Positions 35,666 through 53,445 of a stretch of DNA of 64,000 nt are shown in pieces. The DNA lies in assembly GCA_963733095.1 (NCBI GenBank), contig CAVTBV010000016.1:64001-128000 (forward strand), given 5' to 3'. The notes beneath the pieces were generated by a model. The model saw only the letters and a program-made list of their open reading frames with translations. It was not told the DNA's origin and searched no databases. The translations under genes were made by a program, and so were the position numbers. The DNA comes from Candidatus Bathyarchaeota archaeon (GTDB lineage Archaea > Thermoproteota > Bathyarchaeia > Bathyarchaeales > Bathycorpusculaceae). Within the stretch, counting starts at the first letter, position 1, and each line of letters opens with the position of its first letter.

Positions 35666-36177
35666 TGGAGACTGGAAAAACCAAAGTTATATCCGTGCTA
35701 GTTGAGAACAAACCTGGTGTCCTACAAATCATCGCCAACCTATTCAGACGCAGAAACTTTAACATAGAAAGCATCACCGTCGGTCCAACCCAGCAACACG
35801 ACATAGCCCGCATGACCATAACAGTCAACGAAGACGAAAAGACCATCGACCAAGTCATCAAACAAGTCGCAAAACAAATCGACGTCCTCAAAGTCGACGA
35901 ACTCTCTCTTGGCAACTTTGTCATGCGTGAACTCGCATTGATCAAAGTTAACGTGCCAAGCTCCAAAGAACGCAGCGACATCATCAACTGCGTAGAGGTC
36001 TTCCGCGGCAGAATCATCGATGTCTCAACCGACAGCCTAACAGTTGAAATCACAGGAACCCCAGACAAAATCGACGCATTCCTCAACCTCATGAACACCT
36101 TTGGAGTAATAGAATTGGCAAGAACAGGCATAACAGCCCTAGCTCGAGGCGCAAAATCGACAAGAATCGACGAATAA
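35665..36177 (+). CDS. ilvN: Acetolactate synthase small subunit
   Basis: LVENKPGVL, FNIESITVG, RELALIKV, ELARTG. Confidence 0.97.
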   Translation: METGKTKVISVLVENKPGVLQIIANLFRRRNFNIESITVGPTQQHDIARMTITVNEDEKTIDQVIKQVAKQIDVLKVDELSLGNFVMRELALIKVNVPSSKERSDIINCVEVFRGRIIDVSTDSLTVEITGTPDKIDAFLNLMNTFGVIELARTGITALARGAKSTRIDE

Positions 36178-36274
36178 ACAGCATCGATAAAGCGGAAATA
36201 CTTAATTGTCTGTTCTTTAAAATCCCCATTTGTCTTAGGTAAATTTAGGTTTAATTCAAGGTAAGCGAAAGACT

Positions 36275-37543
36275 ATGAATATTACAGAAAAAATCTTAGC
36301 TAAATCCTCAGGAAAAAAAGCCGTGCATCCAGGCGAAATCGTCGACGCAAACGTTGACATGGTTATGATACACGACTTAACTGGACCTTTAGCGGTTGAA
36401 GCCTTCAAAAAGATAGGCGTACAAAAAGTTTGGAATAACAAAAAAGTAGTCGTAATTCTGGACCATCAAGTTCCAGCAGAATCCGTCAAGGCAGCAGAAC
36501 TACACAAAACCATGCGTCAATTCGCCAAAGAACAAAACCTCACCTTTTACGATGTAGGCCGGGGCGGAATATGCCACCAAGTTATGCCAGACAAAGGCCA
36601 CGTAGTTCCAGGAACAATCATCTTAGGCGCTGACTCACACACATGCACCTATGGCGCTTTTGGCGCTTTCGCAACAGGCATAGGCTCAACAGAAGCAGCT
36701 GCAGTCATGGCAACAGGAAAAATCTGGCTAAAAGTTCCCGAAGCCATCAAAGTAAACGTCACAGGAAAATTCAAACCCAACGTTACAGCCAAAGACTTAG
36801 TCTTAACCATTACAGGCAAACTGGGCGTAGACGGAGCAATCTACAAGAGCTTAGAATTCACAGGCCCGACTATAAAAAAGATGACGGTTTCAGGCAGAAT
36901 GACATTATGCAATATGGCAGTTGAAATGGGCGCGAAAAATGGCATCGTAGAACCCGACGAAACCACATGTAAATACTTAGAGACAAAAATTAAAAAAATG
37001 CCCAACTTGGATGTACTAAAGAGCGATACAGATGCAATATACAGTCAAATCTTCGAATTTGACGTTTCCAAAATGGAGCCTCAAGTAGCTTGTCCCTCAT
37101 CGGTCGACAACGTTAAACCAATAAGTAAAGTTGGAAAAATCAAGATTGACCAAGCCTTCATCGGTTCCTGTACCAACGGCAGACTAGAAGATTTGCAATT
37201 AGCTGCTAAAATAATGAAGGGCAAAAAAGTCGCTGACGGCGTCCGCGCTCTAGTTATTCCCGCATCTCAGGAAATTTATCAGCAAGCCGACAAAGAAGGA
37301 CTGTTACAAATCTTCACGGAAGCAGGTGCAATCGTCTGTGGCTCTGCGTGTGGACCTTGTTTAGGCGGCCACATTGGTTTACTGGCAGCAGGAGAATCAT
37401 GTGTGTCAACATCTAACCGCAACTTCATAGGCAGAATGGGCAGCACCCAAGCCAACGTTTACTTGGCATCTCCTGCAACCGTTGCAGCCTCTGCTTTAAC
37501 AGGAATAATAACAGACCCAACCGTGGAGAGTAAAGCGAAATGA
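36275..37543 (+). CDS. leuC: 3-isopropylmalate dehydratase large subunit
   Basis: GICHQ, GADSHTCTYGA, IGSCTNGR, CGPCLG, NRNF.GRMG; operon context. Confidence 0.92.
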   Translation: MNITEKILAKSSGKKAVHPGEIVDANVDMVMIHDLTGPLAVEAFKKIGVQKVWNNKKVVVILDHQVPAESVKAAELHKTMRQFAKEQNLTFYDVGRGGICHQVMPDKGHVVPGTIILGADSHTCTYGAFGAFATGIGSTEAAAVMATGKIWLKVPEAIKVNVTGKFKPNVTAKDLVLTITGKLGVDGAIYKSLEFTGPTIKKMTVSGRMTLCNMAVEMGAKNGIVEPDETTCKYLETKIKKMPNLDVLKSDTDAIYSQIFEFDVSKMEPQVACPSSVDNVKPISKVGKIKIDQAFIGSCTNGRLEDLQLAAKIMKGKKVADGVRALVIPASQEIYQQADKEGLLQIFTEAGAIVCGSACGPCLGGHIGLLAAGESCVSTSNRNFIGRMGSTQANVYLASPATVAASALTGIITDPTVESKAK

Positions 37544-38040
37544 ACAACAAAATCAAAGCTCCAGCCATAAAATTAGGCAACAACATCGACACAGACGTCA
37601 TTCTACCAGGCAAATACCTAATCTTAGTTGACCCCTGCGAATTAGCTAAACATGCATTGGAAAGCTTAGATACAGAGTTTGTTCAAAAAGCTAAAGGCGG
37701 CGTCATATTGGTAGGCGGCAAAAACTTCGGCTGCGGCTCAAGTCGTGAGCAGGCGCCCTTGGCGTTGAAGTACTCAGGAGTGAAATGCATCATCGCAGAA
37801 TCATTCGCCAGAATATTCTTCCGCAACGCAATCAACATCGGCTTGCCCGTAATCGAATGCAAAGGCATATCAAGAGCGGTTGAAACAAGCGACGAATTAA
37901 CCGTAGACTTTGAAACGGGCAAGATAGAAAACGTATCCAATAGCAAAAAGTTTCAAGTAGACAAGCTTCCACCATTCATCTTAGAAATCTTAACAGATGG
38001 CGGATTAATAGAGAACCTACGAAGGAAAATGAAAAAATGA
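37540..38040 (+). CDS. leuD: 3-isopropylmalate dehydratase small subunit
   Basis: NIDTDVI.P, NFGCGSSREQA, SFARIFFRN. Confidence 0.93.
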   Translation: MNNKIKAPAIKLGNNIDTDVILPGKYLILVDPCELAKHALESLDTEFVQKAKGGVILVGGKNFGCGSSREQAPLALKYSGVKCIIAESFARIFFRNAINIGLPVIECKGISRAVETSDELTVDFETGKIENVSNSKKFQVDKLPPFILEILTDGGLIENLRRKMKK

Positions 38041-39074
38041 CAGAATACAAAATATCCCTAATTCCAGGCGACGGCATCGGACCAGAATTAACCGAAGCCA
38101 CATTAAAAGTCCTAGATGCAGTTCAGAAAGAATTCGGCGTAAAACTTCAGATTGTAGAAGCTGAAGCAGGCGACGTTGCTCTTGAGAGAGTAGGCGCCGC
38201 ATTGCCAGCGGACACTGTGGAGAAAGTTAAGAACTCCCACGCATGCCTGAAAGGTCCAGTGGGTGAATCTGCAGCCGATGTAATTGTAAAGCTCAGAGTC
38301 ATGTTTGACTTGTATGCTAACCTACGCCCTCTGAAAGCCTATCCCAACGTTCCAGTTGCTCGCCCAGACATCGACATGATGTTTGTTCGCGAAAACACCG
38401 AGGACGTTTACAAGGGCTTAGAATTCACCATCGGGACAGACACCACCCTTTGCCTACGAGTTATCACAAGAAAAGCTTGCGAACGGATAGCCAAAAAAGC
38501 CTTCGACATCGCCCGCTTACGCAACGGCAAAAAGAAAGTCACAGCCATCCACAAAGCCAACGTCATGCGCGTCACCGACGGCTTATTTGCCAGCGTCTGC
38601 CGAGAAACAGCAGAACAGTATCCAGACATAGCCTTCAACGAACTCTACGTTGACGCAGCATCCATGCGATTAATCAAAGAACCAGAAATATTCGACGTCC
38701 TCTGCACATGCAACATGTTCGGCGACATCCTAAGCGACGAAGCAGCACAACAAATAGGCGGCTTAGGTATGGCTCCGGGCGCAAACATCAGCGACAACTT
38801 TGGCCTCTTCGAACCTATCCACGGATCTGCACCAAACCGAGCAGGAAAACACACCGCCAACCCAATCTCAATGATTCTTTCAGCAAAAATGATGCTTGAG
38901 TGGCTGGGAGAAAAATACGGCGACAAGAAATGCTTACAAGCAGGCGCAGCCATAGAGAACGGAGTAGTGTACGCTTTGCGTAACCGTCAAACTGTTCCAG
39001 ACTGCGGCGGCACCACCTCAACTGTGGGCATGGCTGAAGCCATCGCTGCAGCCTTAACCGTAAAAAGTGGCTGA
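38037..39074 (+). CDS. leuB: 3-isopropylmalate dehydrogenase
   Basis: GDGIGPE, VRENTED.Y, NMFGDILSDE, EPIHGSAP; between leuD and leuA. Confidence 0.9.
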   Translation: MTEYKISLIPGDGIGPELTEATLKVLDAVQKEFGVKLQIVEAEAGDVALERVGAALPADTVEKVKNSHACLKGPVGESAADVIVKLRVMFDLYANLRPLKAYPNVPVARPDIDMMFVRENTEDVYKGLEFTIGTDTTLCLRVITRKACERIAKKAFDIARLRNGKKKVTAIHKANVMRVTDGLFASVCRETAEQYPDIAFNELYVDAASMRLIKEPEIFDVLCTCNMFGDILSDEAAQQIGGLGMAPGANISDNFGLFEPIHGSAPNRAGKHTANPISMILSAKMMLEWLGEKYGDKKCLQAGAAIENGVVYALRNRQTVPDCGGTTSTVGMAEAIAAALTVKSG

Positions 39075-40605
39075 TAGCATGTCAAACAAAAACCAAAAAA
39101 CCATTCGAATTTTTGATACCACTCTAAGAGACGGGGAACAAACCCCCGGAGTTTCCTTGACCGCCGACGACAAGATTGAGATTGCACACCAACTCAGCAA
39201 ACTAGGAGTCGACGTCATCGAGGCAGGTTTTCCAAGCTCATCTGAAGGCGAAAAAAAAGTCGTCAAAGACATAGCCAAATCAGGCTTAACCTCAGAAATC
39301 TGCGCCCTGTCCAGAGCAACAAGGGGCGATATCGATGCAGCCCTGGAGTGTGATGTAGACGTAGTTCATGTTTTCATCCCAACCTCACCAGTCCAAATGA
39401 AATACGCCGTTAACTTGACGCCAGAGCAAGTGCTGGCCGCTACGGCAGATTCAGTTTCTTACGTCAAGAAACATGGGATAAAATGCGAGTTTTCACCCAT
39501 GGACGCAACACGCTCCGAAATGCCTTTCCTAAAAAAAGTCTGCAAAGCCGCACAGGAAGCAGGCATGGACAGCCTAAACGTACCCGACACCGTTGGAATT
39601 ATGATTCCCAAAACAACAATCCAACTAATAGAAGACCTAAAAACCGTCGTCACAGTACCGATAAGCACTCACTGCCACGACGATTTCGGTTTAGCAGTCG
39701 CCAATTCACTTGCGGCTGTTGAAGCAGGCGCAGCCCAAGTGCACGTCGCCGTCAACGGGTTAGGCGAACGCGCAGGCAACGCCGCGTTGGAAGAAGTGGT
39801 TATGGCGCTGCATATGATTTACAAGTACAAAACAAACGTAAACAGCAGGTTGCTGTACAGTACTTCAAGAATGGTTGCCTCTTTAACAGGCATAACCGTG
39901 CAGGCTAACAAAGCCATCGTCGGCGAAAACGCATTTGCCCACGAATCAGGAATCCACACCCGCGGCGTGACCGAGAAACCGTTAACATTCGAACCTATAA
40001 ACCCCGAATTAGTCGGCAGAACAAGAAAACTGGTCGCTGGCAAACTGGCAGGAACCCGAGGTATCAAAGCTGAACTTGAAGAAATCGGTATCCACCCAAC
40101 AGAGGAACAACTAAAGGAAATCGTTGGGCGCGTCAAAGAACTAGGCAACAAGGGCAAGATGGTCACCGATGCTGATTTAGTCGCGTTGACTTCTGCTGTT
40201 ATGGGTGAAGTGCTTGGTGAAGAAAAAATCGTTGACCTCTGCGACATGGCCGTCGTCACAGGCATCAAAGTCATCCCAACCGCATCAGTCCGCTTAGTTT
40301 TGAATGGAAAAGAATACGTTGCTGCCGAAACAGGTGTTGGACCAGTTGACGCTGTGTTGAAGGCTATTCAGAAGTTGACCAGTAGCATAGAGAACATCCG
40401 CTTAAGCGAGTACAGATTGGAAGCTATTACGGGCGGTTCAAACGCGGTTGCTGAAGTTGTCATAAAAGTCGAAGACGAAAAAGGCAACATCGTTTCAGCC
40501 AGAGCCGCCAGAGAAGACATCGTCATGGCAAGCGTTGAAGCAATGATAAACGGTATAAACAAACTCTTGCTAAAGAACCATCAAAAGCAGGGAAACAAAA
40601 AGTGA
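39067..40605 (+). CDS. leuA: 2-isopropylmalate synthase (start may be ATG 39079)
   Basis: [27 protein letters not shown]-terminal allosteric domain; leu operon context. Confidence 0.85.
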
Positions 40606-41420
40606 AAACAGTAGCCTTCCAAGGCGAACCTGGAGCCTACAGCGAAAGCGCAGTCTACCAGTTCTTCGGCTCAAAAGTCCAAGTTAAACCCTGCAGGGAT
40701 TTTCGCGATGTCTTTGAAAGCGTAAAGAAGCAGGAAGTCGAAGCGGGCGTAGTGCCAGTTGAGAACTCCCTTGAAGGCAGCATCAACCAAAACTACGACT
40801 TATTCTTCAGCTATAATCTGAGAGTCTGCGGAGAAGTTATCGTCAAAATCGCCCACTGCCTAATCGTAAACCCAGGAACAAGCAAAGACCAAATCAAATC
40901 AGTTTACTCCCATCCGCAAGCCTTGGCGCAATGCAGAAGCTACCTTGAAAAGTCAAAATGGGAAATAATCCCAACCTACGACACCGCGGGTAGCGTCAAA
41001 ATCATCAAAGAACAAAACCTCAAAAACGCCGCGGCCATCGCCAGTGAAAGAGCGGCAGAACTCTACAGCATGCAAATCTTGGCAAGAGATATAGCAGATA
41101 ACAAAGAAAACTATACACGCTTCTTTGTTCTATCCAACGAAGATTCGCCAGTTACAGGCAAAGACAAAACCAGCATAATCTTCTCAGCTAAACATGAACC
41201 AGGCTCACTCTACAACGCATTGGGAGAATTCGCCAAACGCAACATCAACCTAACACGCATCGAATCCAGACCCACCAAAAAAACAGCTTGGGAATACAAC
41301 TTTTACCTTGACTTTGAGGGACATCGAACCGAACAAAAATGCGCCGAAGCCCTAAAAGCACTGGAAAAGTACGCGACGTTTATTAAAGTCTTGGGCTCTT
41401 ACCCCAAGGCTACTTACTGA
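40602..41420 (+). CDS. pheA: Prephenate dehydratase (PDT-ACT)
   Basis: QGEPGAYSE, PVENS.EG, SHPQALAQC, NYTRF, IESRP. Confidence 0.96.
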   Translation: MKTVAFQGEPGAYSESAVYQFFGSKVQVKPCRDFRDVFESVKKQEVEAGVVPVENSLEGSINQNYDLFFSYNLRVCGEVIVKIAHCLIVNPGTSKDQIKSVYSHPQALAQCRSYLEKSKWEIIPTYDTAGSVKIIKEQNLKNAAAIASERAAELYSMQILARDIADNKENYTRFFVLSNEDSPVTGKDKTSIIFSAKHEPGSLYNALGEFAKRNINLTRIESRPTKKTAWEYNFYLDFEGHRTEQKCAEALKALEKYATFIKVLGSYPKATY

Positions 41421-41835: not shown

Positions 41836-42708
41836 TTATTTTTCTGTGGATTCGAGCATTTTGTACATAACATCGTAGGATTCTGCGAAGTCGCTGTCAG
41901 CGGCGGTTAGCTTCTTTTTGATTTGTTCCATTTTCTCGACTATTGCTTTTTGGTCTTTGTTTTTGATGAGGGTTAGCAGTTCTTGGGCTTTAGCCATAAA
42001 GAGGTCTTCGATTTCTCCAAGCCCCGACAGGTTTGTCTGTACGGCTGCATAGAGGTCGGGGGTTTCCAGTGCGGTTGCTTCTGCTAGGGTGAATAGCATT
42101 CGGTAGGTTGTGCCTGCGACTTTTTTTGTTTCAGGCAGGTTCTTTTGTTCCAGCAAGGTTTCGCATGCGACTAAGCCTAGAAAATGCGGCAACCCCAAAA
42201 CAACTGACATGAGTTCATCGTGTTTTTTGGGTGTCATGATGAAAACGTGGGCTTTTTCCTGTTCGAGCCATTGTTTGTATTTTTCCGCAAACTCCTGTTC
42301 CTTGCCGTTTGTCGGTGTTAGAACGTAGGCTTTGTGTTTGACGCCGTTGCTTCCTGGACCAAAAACTGGGTGTGTACCCAACACAGTGGCTTTTTTGATG
42401 TATTGGTGCATGGTGTTAACTGGTGTTTCCTTGATTGATGCAATGTCTATGACAAACTGTCCTTCATGCAATACTGGACTTATTTTTTTAACGACTTCTT
42501 CGATGGCGTTTATGGATACGCATAGGTAGATTTGGTCAGCGTCTTGGGCTGCTTCTTGGAAGTTTGTGGTTAAGTCCACCAGTAGATCTTTTAGATTTTC
42601 AAGTTTCTCTTTTTTTCTATCTGCTAAAACTACATCGTAATCTTTGGAGAGAAAAAATTTGGCGAACCAAACGCCCATTTTCCCCGCGCCGATTACGGCA
42701 ATTCTCAT
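41836..42708 (-). CDS. tyrA: Prephenate dehydrogenase
   Basis: IG.GKMG Rossmann fold, D.ASIK, HPVFGP, HD..MS...GLPH. Confidence 0.93.
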   Translation of the reverse strand: MRIAVIGAGKMGVWFAKFFLSKDYDVVLADRKKEKLENLKDLLVDLTTNFQEAAQDADQIYLCVSINAIEEVVKKISPVLHEGQFVIDIASIKETPVNTMHQYIKKATVLGTHPVFGPGSNGVKHKAYVLTPTNGKEQEFAEKYKQWLEQEKAHVFIMTPKKHDELMSVVLGLPHFLGLVACETLLEQKNLPETKKVAGTTYRMLFTLAEATALETPDLYAAVQTNLSGLGEIEDLFMAKAQELLTLIKNKDQKAIVEKMEQIKKKLTAADSDFAESYDVMYKMLESTEK

Positions 42709-43787
42709 TGAGTTGCTGCCTCGCAGATTTTATTGAGCCCAACCTCGATTTGGTCGTCTGGCGCAGTTAGGGATATGCGGAAGTGCTCGTGGTAGTCGCC
42801 AAAAGCTGATCCTGGAGCAACAGCAACGCCCTTGTCAAGCAGGTTTAAGGTGAATTTCTCGCCGTCTAATCCGTCGAGTTTAGGAAACACGTAGAAGGGT
42901 GCGTCGGGTTTGGTGAATTTGAAGCCTGCCGCTGCGAGTTTGGTGCTTGCGAGGTCTGCGCGTTGTTTGTATTTTGTTTTGATGGCGGAGGCGATTTGTT
43001 TGTGCAGTTCTAAGCCTTTTAATGCGGCGTCTTGGATGAAGACGGGCACGTTGTTGATGGTTATTTGGTTGAGTTTGGTTACGTTGTCGATGAGCATTTT
43101 GTTTGCTATCAAGTAGCCTATGCGCCACCCAGTCATTGTGAATGTTTTGGAGAAGCCGTTTGAAAGGATATGCTTGCAGTCGCAGTCGTAGTCAAGGATG
43201 CTTTTGGTTTTCACGAAGCTGATTGCGCCGTACACTTCGTCGGAGAGGATGGTGACGCCTTTTTTGTTAGCTAACTCCACTATGCCATCGAGGGTTTTGT
43301 CGTCTATGGCTTTGCTTGTGGGGTTGTTTGGGTTGTTGAGGATAATCATTTTTGTTTCGCTGTCAATCAAGCCCTCAAGCTTGTCAAGGTGAATTTTCCA
43401 GCCGTCTTCCATTTCCGTCCGCAAAAGCTTGGTTTTCGCGCCAAAACTCTTCGCGATTAAATCGTAAGCTGTCCAGTATGGAGTAGGAATGATTACGTTG
43501 CCGCCGTTTTTGAGCATCAGAAACATCGTTGAGAATATCGCCCATTTTGAACCCGGCGTAATAACCACGTTCTCAGTTTTGACGCCGTGGACCTCTGCAA
43601 TTTTCTGCCTTAGCTTCAGCTCGCCATAAGAGGAGGAATACTTGGTTTTGCCAGCCTTCAAAGAAGCATACGCAGCTTCCACTATTTCGGGCGGCGTAGC
43701 TAAGTCTGGGTCACCCAGGTTTAGACGAATTATCTTTTTTCCTTCACTTTCAAGCTTGAGTGCTTTCTCGTTTATCTCGTAGAGCAT
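42705..43787 (-). CDS. Class I PLP-dependent aminotransferase (probably aromatic/aspartate)
   Basis: NNPNNPT, SDEVY, FSKTFTMTGWRIG; start set at ATG 43787. Confidence 0.92.
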   Translation of the reverse strand: MLYEINEKALKLESEGKKIIRLNLGDPDLATPPEIVEAAYASLKAGKTKYSSSYGELKLRQKIAEVHGVKTENVVITPGSKWAIFSTMFLMLKNGGNVIIPTPYWTAYDLIAKSFGAKTKLLRTEMEDGWKIHLDKLEGLIDSETKMIILNNPNNPTSKAIDDKTLDGIVELANKKGVTILSDEVYGAISFVKTKSILDYDCDCKHILSNGFSKTFTMTGWRIGYLIANKMLIDNVTKLNQITINNVPVFIQDAALKGLELHKQIASAIKTKYKQRADLASTKLAAAGFKFTKPDAPFYVFPKLDGLDGEKFTLNLLDKGVAVAPGSAFGDYHEHFRISLTAPDDQIEVGLNKICEAATQ

Positions 43788-43813
43788 TTCATCGAAATCT
43801 CCATTAAGAGCTT

Positions 43814-44074
43814 TTATTCTTGAACCGCACTGCACATATTAACTATTTCGCGGTAAACTGCTTCAATTTGACCAGCATCAAGACCGAATTCGGTTCCTTT
43901 TGATCTAATCCGCGTGTAGACATCATTTTCCCTTGACGTGTCTCGAACGGGTTTTCCTTGCTTCTTCTTTGCAGCCCCGATGGTTTTGCATATGTTAACC
44001 CGTTGGCATAAGGCGCTTAGGATTTGGTCGTCGATTTCGTCGATTTTTTTTCTGAGACTTGAAAGTTCATCCAT
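43814..44074 (-). CDS. aroQ: Chorismate mutase, AroQ type
   Basis: LRKKIDEIDDQI...R...IG..K....PVRD..RE. Confidence 0.93.
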   Translation of the reverse strand: MDELSSLRKKIDEIDDQILSALCQRVNICKTIGAAKKKQGKPVRDTSRENDVYTRIRSKGTEFGLDAGQIEAVYREIVNMCSAVQE

Positions 44075-44076
44075 GT

Positions 44077-45180
44077 TTAATGCTCCTTGAGGATTTGGGG
44101 AATGTAGCCTTTGCGGATCAGGTGGTCAGCTAAGGTTATGGCAACCGCTGCTTCGATGGCGGGCACTGCTTTTGGAACCACACAAGGGTCATGTCTACCT
44201 TTAACATTCAAAGAGGCATTCTCCATCTTGTACATGTCAACGGTCGTCTGTTCCTTAGCGATTGAGGGCGTGGGCTTTATTGCTGCTCGAATCAAAATCG
44301 GCATGCCGCTTGACAAACCGCCCAGAATGCCACCTGCATTCTCCGTTGCAGTAACAACCTTGCCGTTTTTCACAAGATAAGCATCGTTGTTCTCTGAGCC
44401 CCGCAAACGTGCAGCCCCAAAGCCAACACCGAATTCAACCCCTTTTACAGCGGGAACAGCAAACACTGCCTTCGCTAAATCAGCATCCAACGCATCAAAC
44501 AGCGGCTCACCAACCCCGACAGGCATGTTTAGCACGACACATTCAACTATGCCGCCCAGGCTGTCGCCTTCTTTTTTAGCTTCGACGATGGTTTCTTCCA
44601 TCTTTTCTGCGCAGGCTAAGTCGGGGCAACGGGTCGCGGCTGCGTAGCGGTTTTTGCGGATTTCGGAGAAACTAAACTGCCGTTGGCTTTTAACGTTGCC
44701 AATGGCTAAGGTGTAAGCTAAAACATCAACATTGTACCTGCTGAGCAGTTTTTTGGCTATGGTGCCAGCCATTATGAGGGCAACTGTGACTCTGCCTGAG
44801 AAGCGTCCGCCGCCTCGGTAATCGTTAAAGCCGCCATATCTGACGCGCGCCGGGTAATCTGAGTGTCCAGGTCGTGGCAGGTCTTTTATGGCTTCGTAAT
44901 CGCTGGATTGGGTCTCTTTGTTCTCAACCATCAGAGCGATTGGAGCACCAGTCGTTAACCTGTTAAAGACGCCTGAGAGAATTTGGGCTTTGTCTTTTTC
45001 GACCCGAGCAGAAACAATTTTGGGCTCAGCTGGAATTCTGAGGTCAAGTTCCTCCTGAAAATCAGCTTCCGAGAGCGGCAAGCCAGCTGGGCAACCATCC
45101 ACAACGACGCCGACGACTTTGCCGTGGCTCTCCCCAAACGTTGTAACAATGAATTCTTTACCTATCGAATTTCCCGCCAA
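44077..45180 (-). CDS. aroC: Chorismate synthase
   Basis: TFGESHG, RPGH.D, GGGR.SGR, KPTPSI, GRHDPC. Confidence 0.98.
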   Translation of the reverse strand: MAGNSIGKEFIVTTFGESHGKVVGVVVDGCPAGLPLSEADFQEELDLRIPAEPKIVSARVEKDKAQILSGVFNRLTTGAPIALMVENKETQSSDYEAIKDLPRPGHSDYPARVRYGGFNDYRGGGRFSGRVTVALIMAGTIAKKLLSRYNVDVLAYTLAIGNVKSQRQFSFSEIRKNRYAAATRCPDLACAEKMEETIVEAKKEGDSLGGIVECVVLNMPVGVGEPLFDALDADLAKAVFAVPAVKGVEFGVGFGAARLRGSENNDAYLVKNGKVVTATENAGGILGGLSSGMPILIRAAIKPTPSIAKEQTTVDMYKMENASLNVKGRHDPCVVPKAVPAIEAAVAITLADHLIRKGYIPQILKEH

Positions 45181-46456
45181 CTAAGTTAGCTCCTAGTTGT
45201 TTTAGATGAGTAAAGAACTGCGGATAAGACTTTCTGACGCACTCGGCGTTTTGGATTGTTGTTTCTCCTTCTGCGCCTAAAGCGGCGACTGCGCATGCCA
45301 TCGCAATCCGGTGGTCGTTATGGGAATTTATGACCGCACCATGTAGAGGCGAACCACCCTCTATGATTAAACCGTCATTGCTGATTGTGATTTGTGCCCC
45401 CATCTTTGTTAGTTCAAGGTAGAGTGATTCAAGTCGGTCGGATTCCTTGAGGCGAAGCCTGTGGGCGCCAAAAATGTGGGAGAGCCCTTTTGAGTAGCAT
45501 GCAAGAACCGCTATTGCTGGGACAAGGTCAAGAATGTTCTTGGCGTCTATCTCTAAAGGTCTAAGAGCTGAACCTGTGCCTTCGATCTCAACATTATCCT
45601 CGCAGACTTTCCCGTTAACACCCATGTGTTTTAGGATGCCCATGATGGCCTTGTCACCCTGAACACTGCTATAACTAAGGTTGTTTATTTGGACTTTAGA
45701 AGTGGTTATGGCTGCGGCGGCGAGGAGAAAAGCGGCTGAGGAAAAATCGCCCGGAACTCTGCCGTCTTGAGGTGTGTAGGTTTGGTTTGCTGGGATATGA
45801 ATGTGGTTTTCATGGGCAGGCACCTTAATTCCATGGTTAACAAGGACCACTTCGGTCATTTTTACGTAGTCCGCGGACTCCAACGGCGAAGTCAGCATTA
45901 TTTCCGTGTCCACCTTAGCCATTGGACAGGCAAACATCAAGCCAGAAATAAACTGTGAGCTAACATCGCCCGCAATGAAGGTTTCACCCCCGACAATTCC
46001 GTCACCTTCAACGAAAACTGCGTCTTTGCCTTCGAGTTTTCCAATTTCGGCGTTAGCCCCGAGTTCTTTGAGGCTTGCCAACAAAGGAGCCACAGGACGT
46101 TTCTCAATGGAACCCTTAAACACCAAGGTCGAAGGACCATTCGCAAGTGCAGACACAGGAATCATGAAACGCAAAGTCGCACCTGATTCACCACAGTCGA
46201 TTGGCTCCTTTGCGCATTTAAGCGGCAACGCTCCTTTAATTGTCCAGCAGCCCTCTGCAACCGTCACTTTTGCACCCAAAGCTGTAACAGCTCGAAGTGT
46301 GGCTTCTGTGTCGTCGGATAAGAGTGGATTTGATACCTTGGATGTGCCGTGGGAGAGGGCAGCGGCGATTACCATTCTCTGTGTGTAGGACTTTGAGGGT
46401 GGCGCACAAACTTGGCCGCTTAACTTTTCGGTTTTTTTAATTTTTACATCAGTCAT
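45158..46456 (-). CDS. aroA: EPSP synthase
   Basis: PPSKS, GESGATLRF, SSQFISGL, KESDR, DHRIAM, KSYP.F; start at ATG 46456. Confidence 0.97.
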   Translation of the reverse strand: MTDVKIKKTEKLSGQVCAPPSKSYTQRMVIAAALSHGTSKVSNPLLSDDTEATLRAVTALGAKVTVAEGCWTIKGALPLKCAKEPIDCGESGATLRFMIPVSALANGPSTLVFKGSIEKRPVAPLLASLKELGANAEIGKLEGKDAVFVEGDGIVGGETFIAGDVSSQFISGLMFACPMAKVDTEIMLTSPLESADYVKMTEVVLVNHGIKVPAHENHIHIPANQTYTPQDGRVPGDFSSAAFLLAAAAITTSKVQINNLSYSSVQGDKAIMGILKHMGVNGKVCEDNVEIEGTGSALRPLEIDAKNILDLVPAIAVLACYSKGLSHIFGAHRLRLKESDRLESLYLELTKMGAQITISNDGLIIEGGSPLHGAVINSHNDHRIAMACAVAALGAEGETTIQNAECVRKSYPQFFTHLKQLGANLVGGKFDR

Positions 46457-47327
46457 TAAAATACACCTTGGCTTTTTCACAGTTCAATTTTGTCTGCAAG
46501 ATTTCGCCTTCATACTTTTGCAGAGCGGCTTTAACTGAATCAGCCTTGTCTTTGGGAACTACAGCGGTTACCGCTGGTCCTTTGCCGCACAACCCAGCCG
46601 CCACTGCCCCAGCCGCCAATGCATCGATGGCGATTGCGGGGTTGAAGTTGCATGCTGAAGAGTAAATCAGGCCATTTAGAGTGAGGGCTTCCCAAACCTT
46701 GCCTTCCAAAGCCTTCTCAAACGCTATTTCGACAAGGGGCTTGACAGTTTTGAGCCTGTTAACGTTTGAGTCTGCGGTGTAGGCTTTTTCTGGCGGCACA
46801 TGAAAGAGCACACTTAAGTCTTCTTGCAACGGCATCTGTTTGATTATTTCCCGTTTCAGGTTATCAGTAACCACTATGCCGCCGAAGTATGAAGCGCAAG
46901 CATCATCGAACGCGCCTGTCACAGTGACTTTTGCGTCAAAAGCTGCTTCAACACCTATCTTGACGATTTCTAAGTCATCGAGTTTTTTGCCAAGCGCCGT
47001 CGTGGTTGCTAGGGCAGTTGCGTTTGCGGCGGCGCTACTGCTTTTGAGTCCCTTGGCGATGGGGATGCTTGAGCGGGTTTTAATTTTTACGCCAAAACTC
47101 TTTTCTAAACTGAATCTTTGCAGGACACGTGCCGCTGTTTTTTCGATGAGAAGTGTGCTTTCTTTTGGGTCAGATACAATTTCTGCGTTGATAACGCCTG
47201 GTTCGTCGGTTAGTTTGACTTCTGCTTTAGTCCACAAATCCACACCAAACGCTGCACCCTTCCCAAGTGCAATCGCGTTAACGATTGTGGCAGCTCCATG
47301 GGTAATTGCAGTTGCTTTCCCAGTCAA
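46449..47327 (-). CDS. aroK: Archaeal (GHMP-family) shikimate kinase
   Basis: TIVNAIA.GKG.A, GLKSSSA, TGAFDDA.AS. Confidence 0.96.
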   Translation of the reverse strand: MTGKATAITHGAATIVNAIALGKGAAFGVDLWTKAEVKLTDEPGVINAEIVSDPKESTLLIEKTAARVLQRFSLEKSFGVKIKTRSSIPIAKGLKSSSAAANATALATTTALGKKLDDLEIVKIGVEAAFDAKVTVTGAFDDACASYFGGIVVTDNLKREIIKQMPLQEDLSVLFHVPPEKAYTADSNVNRLKTVKPLVEIAFEKALEGKVWEALTLNGLIYSSACNFNPAIAIDALAAGAVAAGLCGKGPAVTAVVPKDKADSVKAALQKYEGEILQTKLNCEKAKVYFND

Positions 47328-47329
47328 TT

Positions 47330-48187
47330 TTACACCTTCTGCAAATGATTAAGCGCCGCCTGCCTCATAACTTCAACCGGAGCAGACTTACCCGTCCAAA
47401 GCTCAAAGGATGCGGCACCCTGATAAATCAACATCTCAACCCCACTTACCACCTTAGCTCCTGCAGCTTTCGCCTCCTTAGCAAGTTTGGTCTCAAGCGG
47501 GTTGTAGACTATATCCATTACCGACAAATCGGGTCTTAAGAGTTTAGGACTCACAAGGCTTTCGTCTGCTTTGGGTTTCATACCGATTGAAGTGGCATTT
47601 ATGAGAATATCTGAGTCTTGGAGGTTCTGCTGTATTTCTTTTGGTGAAATTGAGCCTGCAACTATTTTTTTGTTCACAGTCTTTTCAAGCAGTTTTGCTA
47701 ATGCTTGGGCTTGTTTTATGGTTCGGTTAAGAACTGCTAGTTCATCGGCTTCTTTAGCCATCGTGTACGCTATAGCTCTTGCAGCGCCGCCTGCACCAAG
47801 TAAAAGAACTTTTCTGCCCTTTGGCTCCACGCCGTTTTCTCTTAGAGCTTTTAGGGCACCTACGCCGTCTGTGTTGAACCCGAAAAGTTTGCTATCTTTG
47901 TTTAGGATTGTGTTGACCGAATTTACGATTTGAGCAGATAGGTCTGTTCGGTCTAAATACTTCAACACTGTGCTTTTATGGGGCATGGTTACGTTTAAGC
48001 CCCGCACATTTAGGGCACGCATGCCATTTACAGCGTTTTCTACTGCTTTTGGCTTTACTTTGAAAGCTAAAAATGCGTAGTCGAGGCTGAGAGCATTAAA
48101 TGCGGCATTGTGCATGATGGGGCTTAATGTGTGCTCTATAGGGTCACCGATGACTCCGCAAACCCTTGTTTTCCCCGTAATGTTCAT
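47330..48187 (-). CDS. aroE: Shikimate dehydrogenase
   Basis: NVTMPHK, NTDG.G, GAGGAARA, NATS.GM, DIVYNP. Confidence 0.97.
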   Translation of the reverse strand: MNITGKTRVCGVIGDPIEHTLSPIMHNAAFNALSLDYAFLAFKVKPKAVENAVNGMRALNVRGLNVTMPHKSTVLKYLDRTDLSAQIVNSVNTILNKDSKLFGFNTDGVGALKALRENGVEPKGRKVLLLGAGGAARAIAYTMAKEADELAVLNRTIKQAQALAKLLEKTVNKKIVAGSISPKEIQQNLQDSDILINATSIGMKPKADESLVSPKLLRPDLSVMDIVYNPLETKLAKEAKAAGAKVVSGVEMLIYQGAASFELWTGKSAPVEVMRQAALNHLQKV

Positions 48188-48870
48188 TGTTTTATCCCCA
48201 AAAGACCATAAACAGTGTGCATTTCATTTATGCTCATCTGCCCAACCGCGGTTTCACTGCCTTGCTCGAGTGAGGCGAAGGTAAAAAGGGAACCGAACAC
48301 AGGGGAGAGCAACCTTGAGATTTTACCGTGTTCGCCCATGCAGAAGCAGACGAGTTGTGCCTTACATGAAGCAAAAGAAACAAAGCTCAAAACGGGCAGG
48401 TTGTCTTCGACCTGTTTAGCCGTTGTCACAATCTTGCAGATGCTGGCTCCGCTGGCAATCTCATCATCAAGAACTTTCTCCATAGCGGAAACACTAAGTA
48501 CGCCGTTGAATTTGTGGTAGGAAACGATTGTTTTTGTCCCCAACTGCTTGAGTTGGCTGATTGTGTCTTTATGCTTTGGGCTTGTTAGGTTAACGTCAAT
48601 GTATTCAAAACCGCTCTTGGCGGCAAATAGCAGAGTTTGTTGCCACTCGGATTCTGTTCCTTGGAAGTATCCTTTTTCGCTTTGAAGTTTGTTTGCGGCG
48701 ATTAAGGGGATTTTTGTACTTGCTGAAAGGTCAGATAGATTTCTGGAGACTTCAAGGCAGTCGAGTCTTACTTCAATAAGGTCTGCTTCGGCTTGCTCTG
48801 CCTTCTCAATTAGATTTAACGCTTCAAGGTTGTTTTTTGGGAGAATCGAAACGCAGATTCTCGGAGTCAC
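48184..48870 (-). CDS. aroD: Type I 3-dehydroquinate dehydratase
   Basis: EVRLD, IVSYH.F, KIV, MG..G.ISR, GQ. Confidence 0.9.
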   Translation of the reverse strand: MTPRICVSILPKNNLEALNLIEKAEQAEADLIEVRLDCLEVSRNLSDLSASTKIPLIAANKLQSEKGYFQGTESEWQQTLLFAAKSGFEYIDVNLTSPKHKDTISQLKQLGTKTIVSYHKFNGVLSVSAMEKVLDDEIASGASICKIVTTAKQVEDNLPVLSFVSFASCKAQLVCFCMGEHGKISRLLSPVFGSLFTFASLEQGSETAVGQMSINEMHTVYGLLGIKQ

Positions 48871-49889
48871 TTTTCAATCACCGTTTCTTCAGGCACAGAT
48901 ATCCCGAAGTGTCTTCCTCCCTTCGCCGCTAAATACACAAGGACTTCGTCGTTGGGTCTGAGTTCGGTTACGGGTTTAGAGGCTTTGGTGGTAACTAGGC
49001 GGATGGTTTCTGCGTTTTGAAGAATCGTCTTTATCACTTTGCTGTCTACCTGGGCTTCTACTAAGATAAGAGGTCTGATTTCAATTTTTATGCGACCCAC
49101 GTTTCCAGTTCGTGTCTTGCCTTCACGGTTGACGATTACAACTTCGTCGCCCGCCTTGAATTCTTGCAGGTAACGGGTTGTTTGCAAGTTGCCTAAAGTG
49201 TACATGGATAATGACCCAGCGTTTACTCTGAAGGGTCGTGAGGCAACATAGGGGTTCTCACTTACTTCCGCTTCGATTAAGAATAATCCGGCACTTTGGC
49301 TTCCGACAAGAATGCCTTCGCCCTGCTTCATCAATTCACAAGTATCCACGCAGACCCTTGCACCTGTGCCGATTGGCTTTGTGGAAACGATTTTGGCAAT
49401 TGCCATTTCCAGTTTTAGTGCTTCAGGTTTAACGATGGCGACGGTTTTTAGGATTTCATCTTGGTCTGAAGTCTTTAGCAAGACGCCGTCGGTTCCCAAT
49501 TCAAGGGTTTCAAGCGCCACTTTTGCTTCTTCTGCGTTGGTGACTTCGGCGATTAGTTTGCTTTTACCTTTTATTCGGGCAATCAGGTTTTCTAAGGGGA
49601 TAACTCGCCAGTTTGCACAACTGACGACTAAGTAATTTGCTCCCAGTTGGGCTACTTTGACTGTCAGGTTCTCGGTTTCTTTGTCGCTTATGCATATTCT
49701 TAAAACCTTTTGACCCTTGAGCCCATTTAGGGTATCTTCAACTTTGGGTACTATAATGTTAAGGGTTTCTTTGGTAGCCAAAAAAGTGGCAGTATTTCCC
49801 TCAACGACTGCGTCGGCGTATTGAGAGACAAGCGGATTTAGGGCTTCTTTTCCGTCGCTTTCTGACTCTATCCAAAGTTCCTTCAACAT
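48867..49889 (-). CDS. aroB': 3-dehydroquinate synthase II (archaeal AroB')
   Basis: W.VIPLEN, RVCVDT, RPFRVNAG, GR.KIE.RPL, LQNAETI, GRHFG. Confidence 0.96.
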   Translation of the reverse strand: MLKELWIESESDGKEALNPLVSQYADAVVEGNTATFLATKETLNIIVPKVEDTLNGLKGQKVLRICISDKETENLTVKVAQLGANYLVVSCANWRVIPLENLIARIKGKSKLIAEVTNAEEAKVALETLELGTDGVLLKTSDQDEILKTVAIVKPEALKLEMAIAKIVSTKPIGTGARVCVDTCELMKQGEGILVGSQSAGLFLIEAEVSENPYVASRPFRVNAGSLSMYTLGNLQTTRYLQEFKAGDEVVIVNREGKTRTGNVGRIKIEIRPLILVEAQVDSKVIKTILQNAETIRLVTTKASKPVTELRPNDEVLVYLAAKGGRHFGISVPEETVIEK

Positions 49890-50674
49890 TTCTCACCGAG
49901 AATCTTTAGTGCTTGTTCAACCGTTGCGTTTTGGTGGACGATGGCTGATAGTGCTTTTGCTATTTGGGTTGGTTTTTCGCATTGGAACACGTTTCGTCCG
50001 ATGGAGAGTCCTGCGGCTCCAGCTTTCATCGAATCGCTTGTGGTTTGGAGGACTTCCTCTAAGGATTTGCATTTTGGTCCACCCGCGATGACTACTGGAA
50101 CTGGGCAGCTTTCAACTACTGCTTTGAATGTTTCTATGTTGCCTGTGTAGTTAGTTTTGATTATGTCTGCGCCGAGTTCTGCGCCTATTCTTGCTGCGTG
50201 GGCAACGACGTCTGGTGCATGTTCATTTTGGATCCTTGGTCCCCGTGGATACATCATGGCTAAGAGGGGAATTCCGTAAATGTCGCATTCCTCTGAGACT
50301 TTGCCCAGGTTCTGGAGCATTTTGTCCTCATCTTGTGCGCCGACGTTAACGTGCACAGAGACGGCGTCTGCTCCGATGCGGATGGCTTCTTGGACGCTAC
50401 AGACTTGGACTTTTGCGTTTAAGTTGGGGCTAAGATTCGACATGCCCGACAACATCACGATTAAGCCTGCACCGTCAACTTCGATGCTTTTTGCTATGCC
50501 CTTGTGGACAAGGATAGCGTCTACTTTGCCCTCTACAAGTTTGTTAGTTATCTGTTGCATGTTGGTTATGCCCTGTATGGGTCCAATAGTTACGCCATGG
50601 TCCATAGGAACGATTATTGTGTGGTTGTCTTTCTGCATGATTTTTCTTAGTCTGCGGGTTTTTCCTGTATTCAT
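49883..50674 (-). CDS. aroA': 2-amino-3,7-dideoxy-D-threo-hept-6-ulosonate (ADH) synthase
   Basis: PMDHG, MMYPRG, ELGADIIKT.YTG, AGGPK, GRNVFQ; adjacent to aroB'. Confidence 0.93.
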   Translation of the reverse strand: MNTGKTRRLRKIMQKDNHTIIVPMDHGVTIGPIQGITNMQQITNKLVEGKVDAILVHKGIAKSIEVDGAGLIVMLSGMSNLSPNLNAKVQVCSVQEAIRIGADAVSVHVNVGAQDEDKMLQNLGKVSEECDIYGIPLLAMMYPRGPRIQNEHAPDVVAHAARIGAELGADIIKTNYTGNIETFKAVVESCPVPVVIAGGPKCKSLEEVLQTTSDSMKAGAAGLSIGRNVFQCEKPTQIAKALSAIVHQNATVEQALKILGEKC

Positions 50675-50684
50675 TTTCTTCCAC

Positions 50685-51920
50685 CTAGTGTGTTTTCAGT
50701 GAGTTTTTAATTAACTTTAATGCTTTTTCTTTATCATTCCAATCTACAAAAAGTAGAATACTCGAAGTAATGGTCAGTATGCCTGAGATGTTTATGCCTG
50801 CTAAGCGGAGGTCTTCGCTGATTTTGCCGATTATGCCGTGTGTTTCTTCTAAGCCGACTCCGCTGGTTTTGAGGAAGACAAGGTCTTTTTTAACTGCCAT
50901 GGCTATGGTTTCTTTGTTGCTTATTGTTATTTTGTGGATTTGGTTGAAGAGCACATCGATGTTTTTTTCTTGGGGAACATAGAGAATTATAGAGTTTGTG
51001 TTCATCGACATACCCAATAACATGGAGTATTCTTTTACTTTCTCAATCATTTCGTTAATGACTACTGGGTTAGCGGATATGCCGTTTCCAATCACCGTTA
51101 TCTCTGCAACAGGGGTTTGGTGAGAGATTTCTGCATCTAACTCTGTAGCTAAGCCTCCTTTGATTAAGGTGCCTTCGCTACTTAAGTCGCAATGTGCATT
51201 GCTGATTACTTTAACATCGATGTCTTTGGGTTTGTACTTGAGCGCTTTGCTATGGATGAATTTGGCGCCTGAATCTGCCAAGCCAACTAGGGTTGTAACG
51301 TTGATTTCTGGAAGCAGTTTGGGGGACGAGATGATTTTGGGGTCACTTGACATTATGCCATCTGCATCAGTCACCAAGACAACTTGGTCTGCATTAATAC
51401 CCTGTGCCAATATAAACGCGGTTGTGTCACTTCCGCCTCTGCCCAAAGTGGTGATTTTGCCGTTTTTAGTTTTTCCGACAAACCCTGCAATGACAGGAAT
51501 GATTCCTGATTCGACAAACGGAAGGATACATTCTTTGATGTTTTTCTCGCATTCCCGAACGATTGGATTGGCGTTTTGGAATGAGTCATCGGTGATTATT
51601 GGCCATTTGTTATCCATGGGGTCAAAGTAGCATGCGTCTACACCATTGCTCTTCAGTGCGGCGGCGAATATTCGTACGCTTGTACGTTCGCCCATCGATA
51701 GGATATCATCTAATTCATGTTTTTGCAGTTTCCCATTTGAAGTATTCTTAGCCGTGGTCATCAGGACATCGGTTGTTTTGCCCATAGCGGAAACTACTAC
51801 AGCGATTTTGGTGCCTTTTTTGGCTTCGTTTACGACGGCGACGACGGCTTTGAGGAGCCTTTCATGGTCGGCAAGGCTAGAGCCACCGAATTTTACAACT
51901 ATCTTTTTGTTACTCTGCAT
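50685..51920 (-). CDS. lysC: Aspartate kinase
   Basis: VVKFGGSS, VVSAMGKTTD, TTLGRGGSD, C-terminal ACT-like region. Confidence 0.94.
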   Translation of the reverse strand: MQSNKKIVVKFGGSSLADHERLLKAVVAVVNEAKKGTKIAVVVSAMGKTTDVLMTTAKNTSNGKLQKHELDDILSMGERTSVRIFAAALKSNGVDACYFDPMDNKWPIITDDSFQNANPIVRECEKNIKECILPFVESGIIPVIAGFVGKTKNGKITTLGRGGSDTTAFILAQGINADQVVLVTDADGIMSSDPKIISSPKLLPEINVTTLVGLADSGAKFIHSKALKYKPKDIDVKVISNAHCDLSSEGTLIKGGLATELDAEISHQTPVAEITVIGNGISANPVVINEMIEKVKEYSMLLGMSMNTNSIILYVPQEKNIDVLFNQIHKITISNKETIAMAVKKDLVFLKTSGVGLEETHGIIGKISEDLRLAGINISGILTITSSILLFVDWNDKEKALKLIKNSLKTH

Positions 51921-51939
51921 GTTGGTGCCCCCGTGTTTC

Positions 51940-51977
51940 GCCCAGAACCGCTACCAAAAAATTTTTCAGCTCTGGGC
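51940..51977 (-). terminator. 11-bp stem enclosing a U6 tract directly after the leader stop; candidate attenuator
   Basis: GCCCAGAGCUG (51977-51967) pairs with CGGUUCUGGGC (51950-51940), two G-U pairs; loop AAAAAUUUUUUGGUAG. Confidence 0.55.
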
Positions 51978-52064
51978 CTAATGAAAATGGTAATAATAAA
52001 AGTAGTAGTCGAAGCTGGGAAACTGTAACGCAATGAGTCCATTTTTGTTTTCAGCATTAGACAT
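51978..52064 (-). CDS. Candidate Phe/Tyr-rich leader peptide MSNAENKNGLIALQFPSFDYYFYYYHFH*
   Basis: 28 codons; 5 Tyr, 4 Phe and 2 His in the last 14; AGGT SD-like site upstream; lies between the promoter and the aromatic operon. Confidence 0.75.
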   Translation of the reverse strand: MSNAENKNGLIALQFPSFDYYFYYYHFH

Positions 52065-52099
52065 TGCTTCGAACCTGTCCAAACAGTCATCTGCCAAAA

Positions 52100-52114
52100 A
52101 ATATAAGCGTTTCG
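52100..52114 (-). promoter_or_regulatory. BRE + TATA promoter for the leader and lysC-aro operon
   Basis: CGAAA-CG-CTTATATT on the minus strand, about 36 nt upstream of the leader ATG. Confidence 0.6.
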
Positions 52115-52539
52115 GAATAAGACTAACCAAAAGTGAGGCATCTGCAGAAAGTCGTTTTGTAATTCTAATCTTGAAAGATGCGACAGTTAGCGGCCCATTC
52201 AAACCCTCATATTTCACAATGAAATGCTACCAAAATCCAAGTGTACACATTATAGTTCGGTTGTAACTTTGAAGAGTTAGTCCTGCCAGATGCTCTGGTT
52301 CCAATCGCCATACTCCAAATCAATTATGTGTCATTTTAGCCGATTAACTGACCTTGACTTTTTTGTTCCTTTACAGTTTGGAGGCCATGATTTTGCCAGA
52401 ACAAACCTGCTGCAATTTCTATTATGATCCTGACGCAGGGCTTCGCCATTTTATTATTCGTTGTTAATTTAGGTCTTTTTAAACGAAACACGGAAATTTG
52501 AGTTGCAGTTAGAGAACGCAAATCCGAAGTCGAAGCAAA

Positions 52540-53445
52540 TCATTTTCTGTAGAGCAAATAAACTCCAAAAACCATAGCTATCCCAGCAAAAATCTGCACG
52601 AAAGTGAACCCTTCTCTGAGAATAACGAAAGCGAAAACTGCTCCGAAAAGAGACGCTGTTGAAAAGATAATGCCAGTCCGCATAGAGCCAATTTCTTTAA
52701 GACCTACCATAAAAAACAGAATTGAGAACCCTATGCTAAATGCCCCTACAGTGATTAGGTAAGGGAAAGCTGAAAGCGGGACGTAGAAGTCTAATTTTAA
52801 TGCATACACAACAAGCAGAAGGCTTACTCCACCTATTAGACATTTTAGGGCAGCTACAAGAAGCAGGTCTTCCTTTACGCATAGAAACTTGCTCAGGTTG
52901 TTGTCTATCCCCCAAAACAAACATCCGGTCAATATTAGGAGGTTACCAATAACCCATGTTTCTAATGACAACTGGTAAAATTGTCCATTGGTTGACAGAA
53001 ATACGGCACCAATGACCAGCAGTGTAATTGCACCTATTTCTTTTTTATTGCACCGTTCCCTTAGAAATGAAATAGCTATTAAAACTGTAAAGAGAGCTTC
53101 GGCGTTTTGAAGCAAAGATGCATTTAATGCAGTGGTCTGGTTAAGACCGTTAAGAAACAATACTGGAGCAATAATAGAGCCACAGAGCACCACCAAACCA
53201 AGTGTAGCTACGTCTTTTTTGCAGAATTTGGGCTCGGTCTTTGTTGGAGTTTTCAGTAGCCGCATGACATGTTTGCGAATTGGAGAGAAGCGAACTGCCG
53301 ATAAAACGATTCCTGCAAAAAGATAGATTAGCCCGGCCACTACGGTTGGATTAACATTGGCTAACGCAATCTTGTTGAGTGTGGTTCCAACACCGAAAAG
53401 GAGGGCAGACCCAACAGCACTTACATAACCCCAGTGATGCGTCAT
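52540..53445 (-). CDS. DMT/EamA family transporter
   Basis: About 10 TM helices in two repeats; ASLL.N.E..FT, WG.DNNL. Confidence 0.9.
   Translation of the reverse strand: MTHHWGYVSAVGSALLFGVGTTLNKIALANVNPTVVAGLIYLFAGIVLSAVRFSPIRKHVMRLLKTPTKTEPKFCKKDVATLGLVVLCGSIIAPVLFLNGLNQTTALNASLLQNAEALFTVLIAISFLRERCNKKEIGAITLLVIGAVFLSTNGQFYQLSLETWVIGNLLILTGCLFWGIDNNLSKFLCVKEDLLLVAALKCLIGGVSLLLVVYALKLDFYVPLSAFPYLITVGAFSIGFSILFFMVGLKEIGSMRTGIIFSTASLFGAVFAFVILREGFTFVQIFAGIAMVFGVYLLYRK

Follow-up and report, generated by a model that had tools for sequence, protein, structure and literature searches.

Leader and operon at the locus

We have analysed a 64,000-nucleotide stretch of contig CAVTBV010000016.1 from a Candidatus Bathyarchaeota archaeon (assembly GCA_963733095.1, positions 64,001 to 128,000 of the forward strand), hereafter called the window, in which a short upstream open reading frame (uORF) rich in Phe and Tyr codons lies between a promoter-like box and an operon for aromatic amino acid synthesis. 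The uORF is probably a translated, cis-acting leader peptide that ties expression of this lysC-aro-tyrA operon to charged tRNA-Tyr and tRNA-Phe, and to tRNA-Trp in some lineages. This estimate applies to the sensor reading as a whole; the sign of the response and the output step, the latter of which we infer, are left out of it. The operon comprises 11 genes on the minus strand (41836-51920). Its first gene, lysC (aspartate kinase; 50685..51920), matches NCBIfam NF005159 with 382 bits, above the cut-off, and is followed at 41836..50674 by aroA′ (ADH synthase), aroB′ (DHQ synthase II), aroD, aroE, aroK (shikimate kinase of the archaeal type), aroA, aroC, and the genes for chorismate mutase, an aminotransferase and prephenate dehydrogenase (tyrA), all assigned by NCBIfam. 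The same search confirmed the gene order given in a preliminary description of the stretch; the operon contains neither trp genes nor pheA.

The leader is also on the minus strand. The promoter-like box, consisting of the B recognition element (BRE) CGAAAC followed by the TATA element GCTTATATTT, is located at 52099..52114, and its role as a promoter is suggested by the archaeal BRE/TATA consensus. In archaea, transcription starts about 26 nt from the TATA centre, which places the predicted start at 52076..52078, about 12-14 nt 5′ of the uORF ATG. The uORF (51978..52064; ATG at 52064-52062, TAG at 51980-51978) has 28 codons plus the stop codon and reads MSNAENKNGLIALQFPSFDYYFYYYHFH. Its final 14 codons include five Tyr (three TAC and two TAT), four Phe (three TTT and one TTC) and two His codons, and the synonymous codons are therefore mixed. 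Phe or Tyr makes up 8 of the final 12 codons (SFDYYFYYYHFH, 51981..52016), which we define by their composition as the Phe/Tyr-rich tail. A hairpin (51940..51977) begins at the base right after the stop codon, with an 11-bp stem (51977-51967 paired with 51950-51940) and a 16-nt loop that holds a run of six U (U6) at 51961-51956. The stem is separated by 19 nt from the lysC ATG (51920), and a Shine-Dalgarno (SD)-like GGGGG lies at 51928..51932, where GGGTG or GGGGG is kept in two alignments of relatives. The box, the uORF with its coordinates, the codon counts and the mixture of synonymous codons had all been given in the preliminary description and were found correct when the sequence was read again, and folding confirmed the stop-abutting 11-bp stem with U6 in its loop.

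Conservation of the leader ORF and its RNA structures

Close relatives of the window's lysC are found at 31 loci with 76-92% identity, several of which belong to species of Candidatus Bathycorpusculum, the genus of the window (a genus name that appears in the available text of PMC10684969). A lysC orthologue is present in 24 of the 24 other genomes of the genus, and the promoter-like box is near-invariant across 24 genus loci. The uORF was found at all 58 loci with lysC of >50% identity, which carry 50 distinct leaders. A lysC of this aro type (aro-type lysC) occurs in 162 of the 301 sampled genomes of the order, among which we hand-picked 40 further loci to span genera and families, taking only loci with enough upstream contig. 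A short ORF was present at each of the 40, with 4-9 Phe, Tyr or Trp codons among its final 12 and its end 57-87 nt before lysC; one of these leaders is truncated where its contig stops and another is weak. In total, 98 of the 98 loci examined in the order have the uORF, giving the 90 distinct leaders to which all counts out of 90 refer. The expectation that a Phe/Tyr-rich uORF would be conserved in related genomes with synonymous variation was thus borne out, both synonymous codons being used for each amino acid. The dap-type lysC paralogue, which shares 34-37% identity and lies in another gene context, has no such leader in three of three loci.

The codon composition changes sharply along the leader ORF. 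Tyr, Phe and Trp account for 35%, 26.4% and 1.3% of the tail codons in the 90 leaders, and together for 62.7% of the tail vs 7.3% of the N-terminal part; Trp is found in the tail of 14 leaders. The final Phe, Tyr or Trp codon is 1-3 codons before the stop codon in 90 of the 90 leaders, the start codon is ATG in 88, the median length is 27 codons, and a TATA-like hexamer begins 40-48 nt 5′ of the uORF ATG in 69. The N-terminal part of the uORF is freely variable and the alignment gaps there are multiples of three, whereas the spacer 5′ of the ATG varies by single bases. In the genus, the C-terminus keeps the peptide motif S-F-D/E/G-Y-x-F-Y-Y; between families, the leader peptide keeps its composition and not its sequence. 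The tails contain 250 TAT, 128 TAC, 169 TTT and 116 TTC codons. Codons ending in U are thus favoured (TAT 66% of Tyr, TTT 59% of Phe), while the long ORFs of the window's genome have 63% TAC and 49% TTT, which is a rough comparison as the leaders stem from many genomes. This bias could reflect slow decoding by wobble pairing or a need for U-rich RNA. We also noticed an 80-amino-acid ORF (51899-52141, minus) that runs in another frame across promoter box, leader and hairpin and over the start of lysC. The same frame is open in just 16 of the 90 leaders; this ORF is very probably spurious and could mislead gene callers.

The hairpin is conserved in its place to a similar degree. The first paired base after the stop codon is located at -3 to +5 nt from it in 89 of the 90 leaders, although by eye L073, L090 and L100 fold differently and L074 is without an abutting hairpin. 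Compared with shuffled sequences, the hairpin has a z-score of -2.0 in the window and a median of -3.0 over the 90 leaders, 78% of which fall below -2. It is the hairpin alone that is unusually stable, since the whole 171-nt leader of the window is not (z = 0.20). In alignments of the window's family, 99.2% of the cells in the stem are paired, with many changes from A-U to G-U and two pairs with compensatory double changes, and the RNAalifold consensus is exactly this stop-abutting helix. Covariation, which the preliminary description named as a check, is found within the family and between families; within the genus, the stem sequence is near-invariant. Between families, the stems are entirely different in sequence and stay at the same location, which is the strongest sign of an RNA structure tied to the stop codon. 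A run of at least four U lies within the hairpin in 42 of 47 genus leaders and in 76 of all 90.

These patterns also bear on the idea that no amino acid is sensed, and that the locus encodes a functional aromatic-rich micropeptide, or a protein- or ligand-binding RNA in which the frame is incidental. The C-terminal motif of the genus would fit such a peptide, and a near-invariant stem within the genus is what is expected of a protein-binding site. Across families, however, only the composition of the peptide is retained, and of the hairpin only the place and the pairing, while its sequence changes; the reading frame, its ATG and the distance from stop to hairpin persist in 89-90 of the 90 leaders, the element always heads aro genes, and it matches no Rfam family. 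We consider this idea very improbable. A cmscan of 51000-53000 against Rfam with E values up to 1 returned no leader or attenuator family, its sole match being a sub-threshold sR17 away from the leader (18.7 bits vs a gathering score of 36).

The leader also stands out within its own genome. An earlier genome scan based on composition only was swamped by noise. A stricter genome-wide scan required an intergenic frame with an amino-acid-rich tail, a fold of -10 kcal/mol or lower beginning at most 9 nt from the stop codon, and a long ORF downstream. Among its 44 candidates, the uORF of the window is the sole one rich in Phe, Tyr and Trp and has the strongest fold (-20.7 kcal/mol), so that the leader exceeds what is expected by chance; no other convincing cognate leader was found among the 44. 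That the hairpin might be a repeated element was discarded, its sequence occurring once in the 2.84-Mb genome.

A second helix may form within the leader. The sequence TTCGAAGC (52066..52073, minus), just 5′ of the uORF ATG, is complementary to AGCTTCGAC (52008..52016, minus), the Ser-Phe-Asp codons that open the tail, and we refer to this candidate helix as P1. The third codon positions of its 3′ arm are almost invariant, unlike those of the downstream Tyr and Phe codons. In alignments of the window's family, 85.9% of the P1 cells are paired and the one-sided changes are compatible with G-U pairing. Tested against shuffled sequences, a contiguous helix joining the uORF start region to the tail is significant (P < 0.05) in 24 of the 47 genus leaders, in 9 of the 11 family leaders and in all six leaders of group B, where it is a different helix of 11-15 bp inside the ORF; RNAduplex z-scores for P1 were uninformative (median -1.0). 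The arms contain the self-complementary TTCGAA, and P1 could instead be a DNA palindrome or operator. This seems less likely: the A-to-G changes that keep G-U pairs and the different helix of group B favour an RNA helix. P1 is rejected as a universal helix, since significance is confined to the window's family and a small number of others, and we treat it, from these alignments, as a real but lineage-limited accessory.

Ribosome position and the proposed direction of the response

We modelled how a ribosome on the uORF would affect the hairpin, using a footprint that reaches 15 nt back and 12 nt forward from the A-site codon, a rule that rests on bacterial and archaeal footprint sizes; the model is thermodynamic, not kinetic. 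For the genus, the modelled hairpin probability is 0.99 with the ribosome at the first Phe/Tyr codon of the tail, 1.00 in the middle, 0.22 at the last such codon and 0 at the stop codon. The trend is the same in all leader groups, and a ribosome at the last codon lowers the probability to 0.05-0.22. We also considered whether the 5′ segment freed by the ribosome could invade the hairpin, and rejected it, the probability being unchanged (0.99 vs 0.99). The alternative pairings put forward in the preliminary description, CCCAG/CAGCUU with CUGGG/GAGCUG and UUACCA with UGGUAG, did not stand up: their bases vary among close relatives and no competitor appeared in the model. Since only the ribosome footprint opens the hairpin, the sole switch visible in the sequence is a steric one.

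Such a switch could act on lysC translation or on mRNA stability, with ribosome position exerting its effect through, for example, P1, the hairpin or ribosome queuing and with no premature termination. Several observations are consistent with this post-transcriptional possibility: the search of 51700-52500 gave no bacterial-type terminator, the window's family has P1, which ties the region around the uORF start (close to the predicted 5′ end) to codons of the tail, and the only fold of the outlier L074 sequesters the SD. When the 5′ arm of the hairpin is masked, the modelled accessibility of the lysC SD and AUG drops slightly, from 0.66 to 0.59 in the genus and similarly elsewhere, and it never rises by >0.15 in any of the 90 leaders. 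The shift is small, however, and a switch by SD sequestration was rejected on this ground; whether the 5′ arm is free or masked, the lysC SD is predicted to stay largely accessible. In addition, three families retain the uORF and the hairpin but have no P1, or none that reaches significance. Taken together, these results make control after transcription an improbable output of the leader.

Our preferred version is control by transcription termination with the logic of classical attenuation, to which we give tentative weight. When Phe and Tyr are plentiful, ribosomes would reach the stop codon and hold the 5′ arm of the hairpin. The polymerase, then uncoupled and trailing single-stranded U-containing RNA, would be stopped at or after the U tract, by FttA/aCPSF1 or through intrinsic termination. 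Under a shortage of Phe or Tyr, the ribosome would stall earlier in the tail, the hairpin would fold behind the polymerase and shield the RNA, and lysC would be reached. In the window's family, P1, formed by the uORF start region and the first tail codons, would close the uORF once the tail is free of ribosomes. The spread of the aromatic codons over 9-12 codons fits this termination version. The prerequisites of factor-dependent attenuation are present, as the genome has a gene for an aCPSF1/FttA orthologue (match to TIGR03675 with 907 bits, above the cut-off) and a U-rich tract lies between the uORF and lysC. Runs of U4-U7 are described in the available text of PMC8716108 as archaeal terminator signals recognised by aCPSF1, and FttA is proposed, in that of PMC11616081, to police lapses in the coupling of transcription and translation; both points fit the termination version as well.

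A number of observations weigh against the sensor reading or against this version of it. The loop U run of the genus is more exposed when the hairpin is closed (modelled unpaired probability 0.75) than when its 5′ arm is masked (0.46). A hairpin that hides the U tract is consequently not seen in the genus and appears only in family f11 (0.42 closed vs 0.64 masked). When the polymerase passes the loop U6, the 3′ arm has yet to be made, and intrinsic release at that point is therefore beyond the control of the hairpin. In 14 of the 90 leaders the U tract is short or missing altogether, a run of at least three U follows the hairpin in 0 of the 58 genus and family leaders, and a search of 51700-52500 for bacterial-type terminators returned 0 sites. 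None of the modelled ribosome states contained an RNA pairing that competes with the hairpin. Other points concern the reach of the reading: in other families the contiguous-helix test reached significance in just 2 of 14, 0 of 6 and 0 of 3 leaders, P1 is missing from the RNAalifold prediction, and the leader counts overstate independence because the loci are related and partly hand-picked. Furthermore, no Trp- or His-rich uORF was found upstream of trpE or hisG in the window's genome, which argues against a general system there. Of the Phe/Tyr-sensing attenuator first suggested for this locus, the conserved cognate leader ORF, the promoter-like box and the hairpin before the aro operon hold, while the specific switch, in which ribosome stalling decides whether the U tract is exposed, is not supported by the modelled base pairing.

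The sensor could also work with the opposite sign. The hairpin would then be the negative element, terminator-like or presenting U, and would be masked by a ribosome held on the last Phe/Tyr codons; a normally terminating ribosome would leave fast and let the hairpin form, whereas a held ribosome would let the polymerase pass. Here the position of the last Phe, Tyr or Trp codon, within three codons of the stop in every leader, tells against the preferred version, as a stall there melts the modelled hairpin. The closed hairpin displays U6 in its loop in the genus, and other lineages have terminator-like forms with a hairpin and a U run: 14-15 bp and then U5 in L103 and L104, and at least three U after the hairpin in 5 of 6 f11 and 10 of 14 f7 leaders. 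On the other hand, the genus and family leaders have no such U run after the hairpin, and Term-seq data described in the available text of PMC8716108 show that archaeal terminators do not strictly need hairpins. A starved ribosome would first meet Phe/Tyr codons 9-12 codons before the stop, from which it masks nothing, and under the opposite sign severe starvation would therefore switch the operon off. A terminating ribosome likewise masks the 5′ arm. We thus regard the opposite sign as rather unlikely. Neither sign, as modelled, explains why U6 lies in the loop in the genus.

Known attenuators, distribution in the phylum and neighbouring genes

Leader-peptide attenuation is a textbook bacterial mechanism that depends on the coupling of transcription to translation and on hairpin terminators; archaea have such coupling but end their transcripts via U tracts and the nuclease FttA/aCPSF1. 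The enterobacterial transcription attenuators of this kind include pheL-pheA, pheM-pheST, trpL, hisL, thrL and leuL. The archaeal leader resembles them in that a short leader ORF lies between a promoter or promoter-like box and the first biosynthetic gene, cognate codons are clustered near the 3′ end of the ORF, up to about two codons before the stop, and an RNA structure starts beside the stop codon, within the footprint of a ribosome that terminates there. It differs from them in having, in the genus, one stable hairpin that is not followed by a U run and that has its U tract in the loop, in lacking a 3:4 terminator and any detectable competing antiterminator pairing, and in the extra helix from the uORF start region to the tail. 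Its codons are mixed Tyr and Phe, and in some cases Trp, and its operon encodes a DKFP-type aro pathway headed by aspartate kinase. The leader would work like a bacterial attenuator but in the genus lacks two of the defining features, the intrinsic terminator and the antiterminator pairing.

There is also a likeness to bacterial uORFs that control factor-dependent termination (tnaC-tnaAB and topAI-yjhQ, the latter in PMC12121999), where a ribosome near the uORF end changes the access of the termination factor. FttA/aCPSF1 is proposed, in the part of PMC11616081 available, as the archaeal counterpart of Rho in policing coupling. The archaeal stall, however, would come from a lack of charged tRNA at a run of codons rather than from arrest by a nascent peptide and a ligand, and the factor would be the nuclease FttA rather than the helicase Rho. 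Polycysteine short ORFs of mycobacteria (bioRxiv 10.1101/834739, available text) likewise show that short ORFs rich in one amino acid can attenuate operon genes with a non-enterobacterial design; unlike the archaeal leader, they are bacterial, leaderless and cysteine-sensing. Literature searches for leader-peptide or ribosome-mediated attenuation in archaea returned bacterial work only and no archaeal case, in agreement with the earlier statement that such attenuation is not an established archaeal mechanism, and the available text of two reviews, on termination signals (PMC13675443, 2026) and on coupling (PMC7858274), contains no mention of it.

We then looked at the leader beyond the order. 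Among 401 genomes sampled across the phylum, 47 have the gene at E ≤ 1e-100, and 20 loci were fetched, mostly from outside the order. The leader design is present at 11 of these 20 (L103-L112 and L115), in a weaker form at 4 and not at the remaining 5. In all six distant lineages checked, aro genes lie behind the leader-lysC unit, the gene order after lysC being asd-aroA′-aroB′ in three, aroA′-aroB′-aroD in one and aroB′-aroD-aroE in two. The conserved layout of box, short ORF, tail rich in aromatic codons and hairpin at the stop codon, placed about 20-35 nt ahead of the SD and lysC, is strictly linked to aro operons. At L142, L143 and L145, which belong to other classes of the phylum, the leader heads lysC-asd-aroA′-aroB′; with this order, the aromatic operon includes both enzymes for the synthesis of aspartate semialdehyde, which ADH synthase uses as co-substrate. 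We further searched five genomes without an aro-type lysC for a leader before aroA′, which was found in two of them and is without a leader in one. The other (L149, genome G094) has an 8-codon GTG-started ORF, VYYFFFTL, located 33 to 6 nt before aroA′, which could be the leader in minimal form or a product of chance.

It is possible, though less likely than not, that these leaders represent an archaeal attenuation without a terminator hairpin, in which ribosome position would set a protective hairpin behind the uncoupled polymerase and hence termination before lysC by FttA/aCPSF1 or at the U tract. If true, this design would be old and widespread, occurring in several classes of Thermoproteota, and ribosome-mediated sensing of amino acids would not be a bacterial invention. 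The leader in any case provides a concrete locus for asking whether transcription in archaea is regulated by ribosomes, how stalling can occur without polarity driven by FttA, and how uncultured Bathyarchaeia control aromatic amino acid synthesis. Its layout, present across an archaeal class and beyond, also offers annotators a motif for finding similar leaders.

The genes around the operon were examined as well. The next gene upstream of the leader promoter (52540-53445, minus) has a weak match to TIGR00950 (E = 8e-10, below the cut-off), a family of carboxylate/amino acid/amine transporters of the DMT/EamA type, and an ECF-type ATPase gene lies further upstream. On the other side, an ilvB-ilvN-leuC-leuD-leuB-leuA-pheA cluster on the plus strand (33959-41420) converges on tyrA, and its last gene is pheA (prephenate dehydratase, 40602-41420). 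This arrangement suggests that the Phe branch is under branched-chain control and the Tyr branch lies behind the Tyr-rich leader. Upstream of ilvB (ATG at 33959), behind a TATA-like box, we have observed an 18-codon mini-ORF, MSMRDRHLNSRDRRVQIL, at 33797-33853 on the plus strand. Its core, an ATG or GTG followed by AGGGATCG and a CCTC-type complement, precedes ilvB at 17 of the 18 family loci (L122-L139, all but L130), in a frame that reads M/V-R-D-R-x-L... with variable ends. The mini-ORF is a candidate for a separate leader of the ilv-leu operon.

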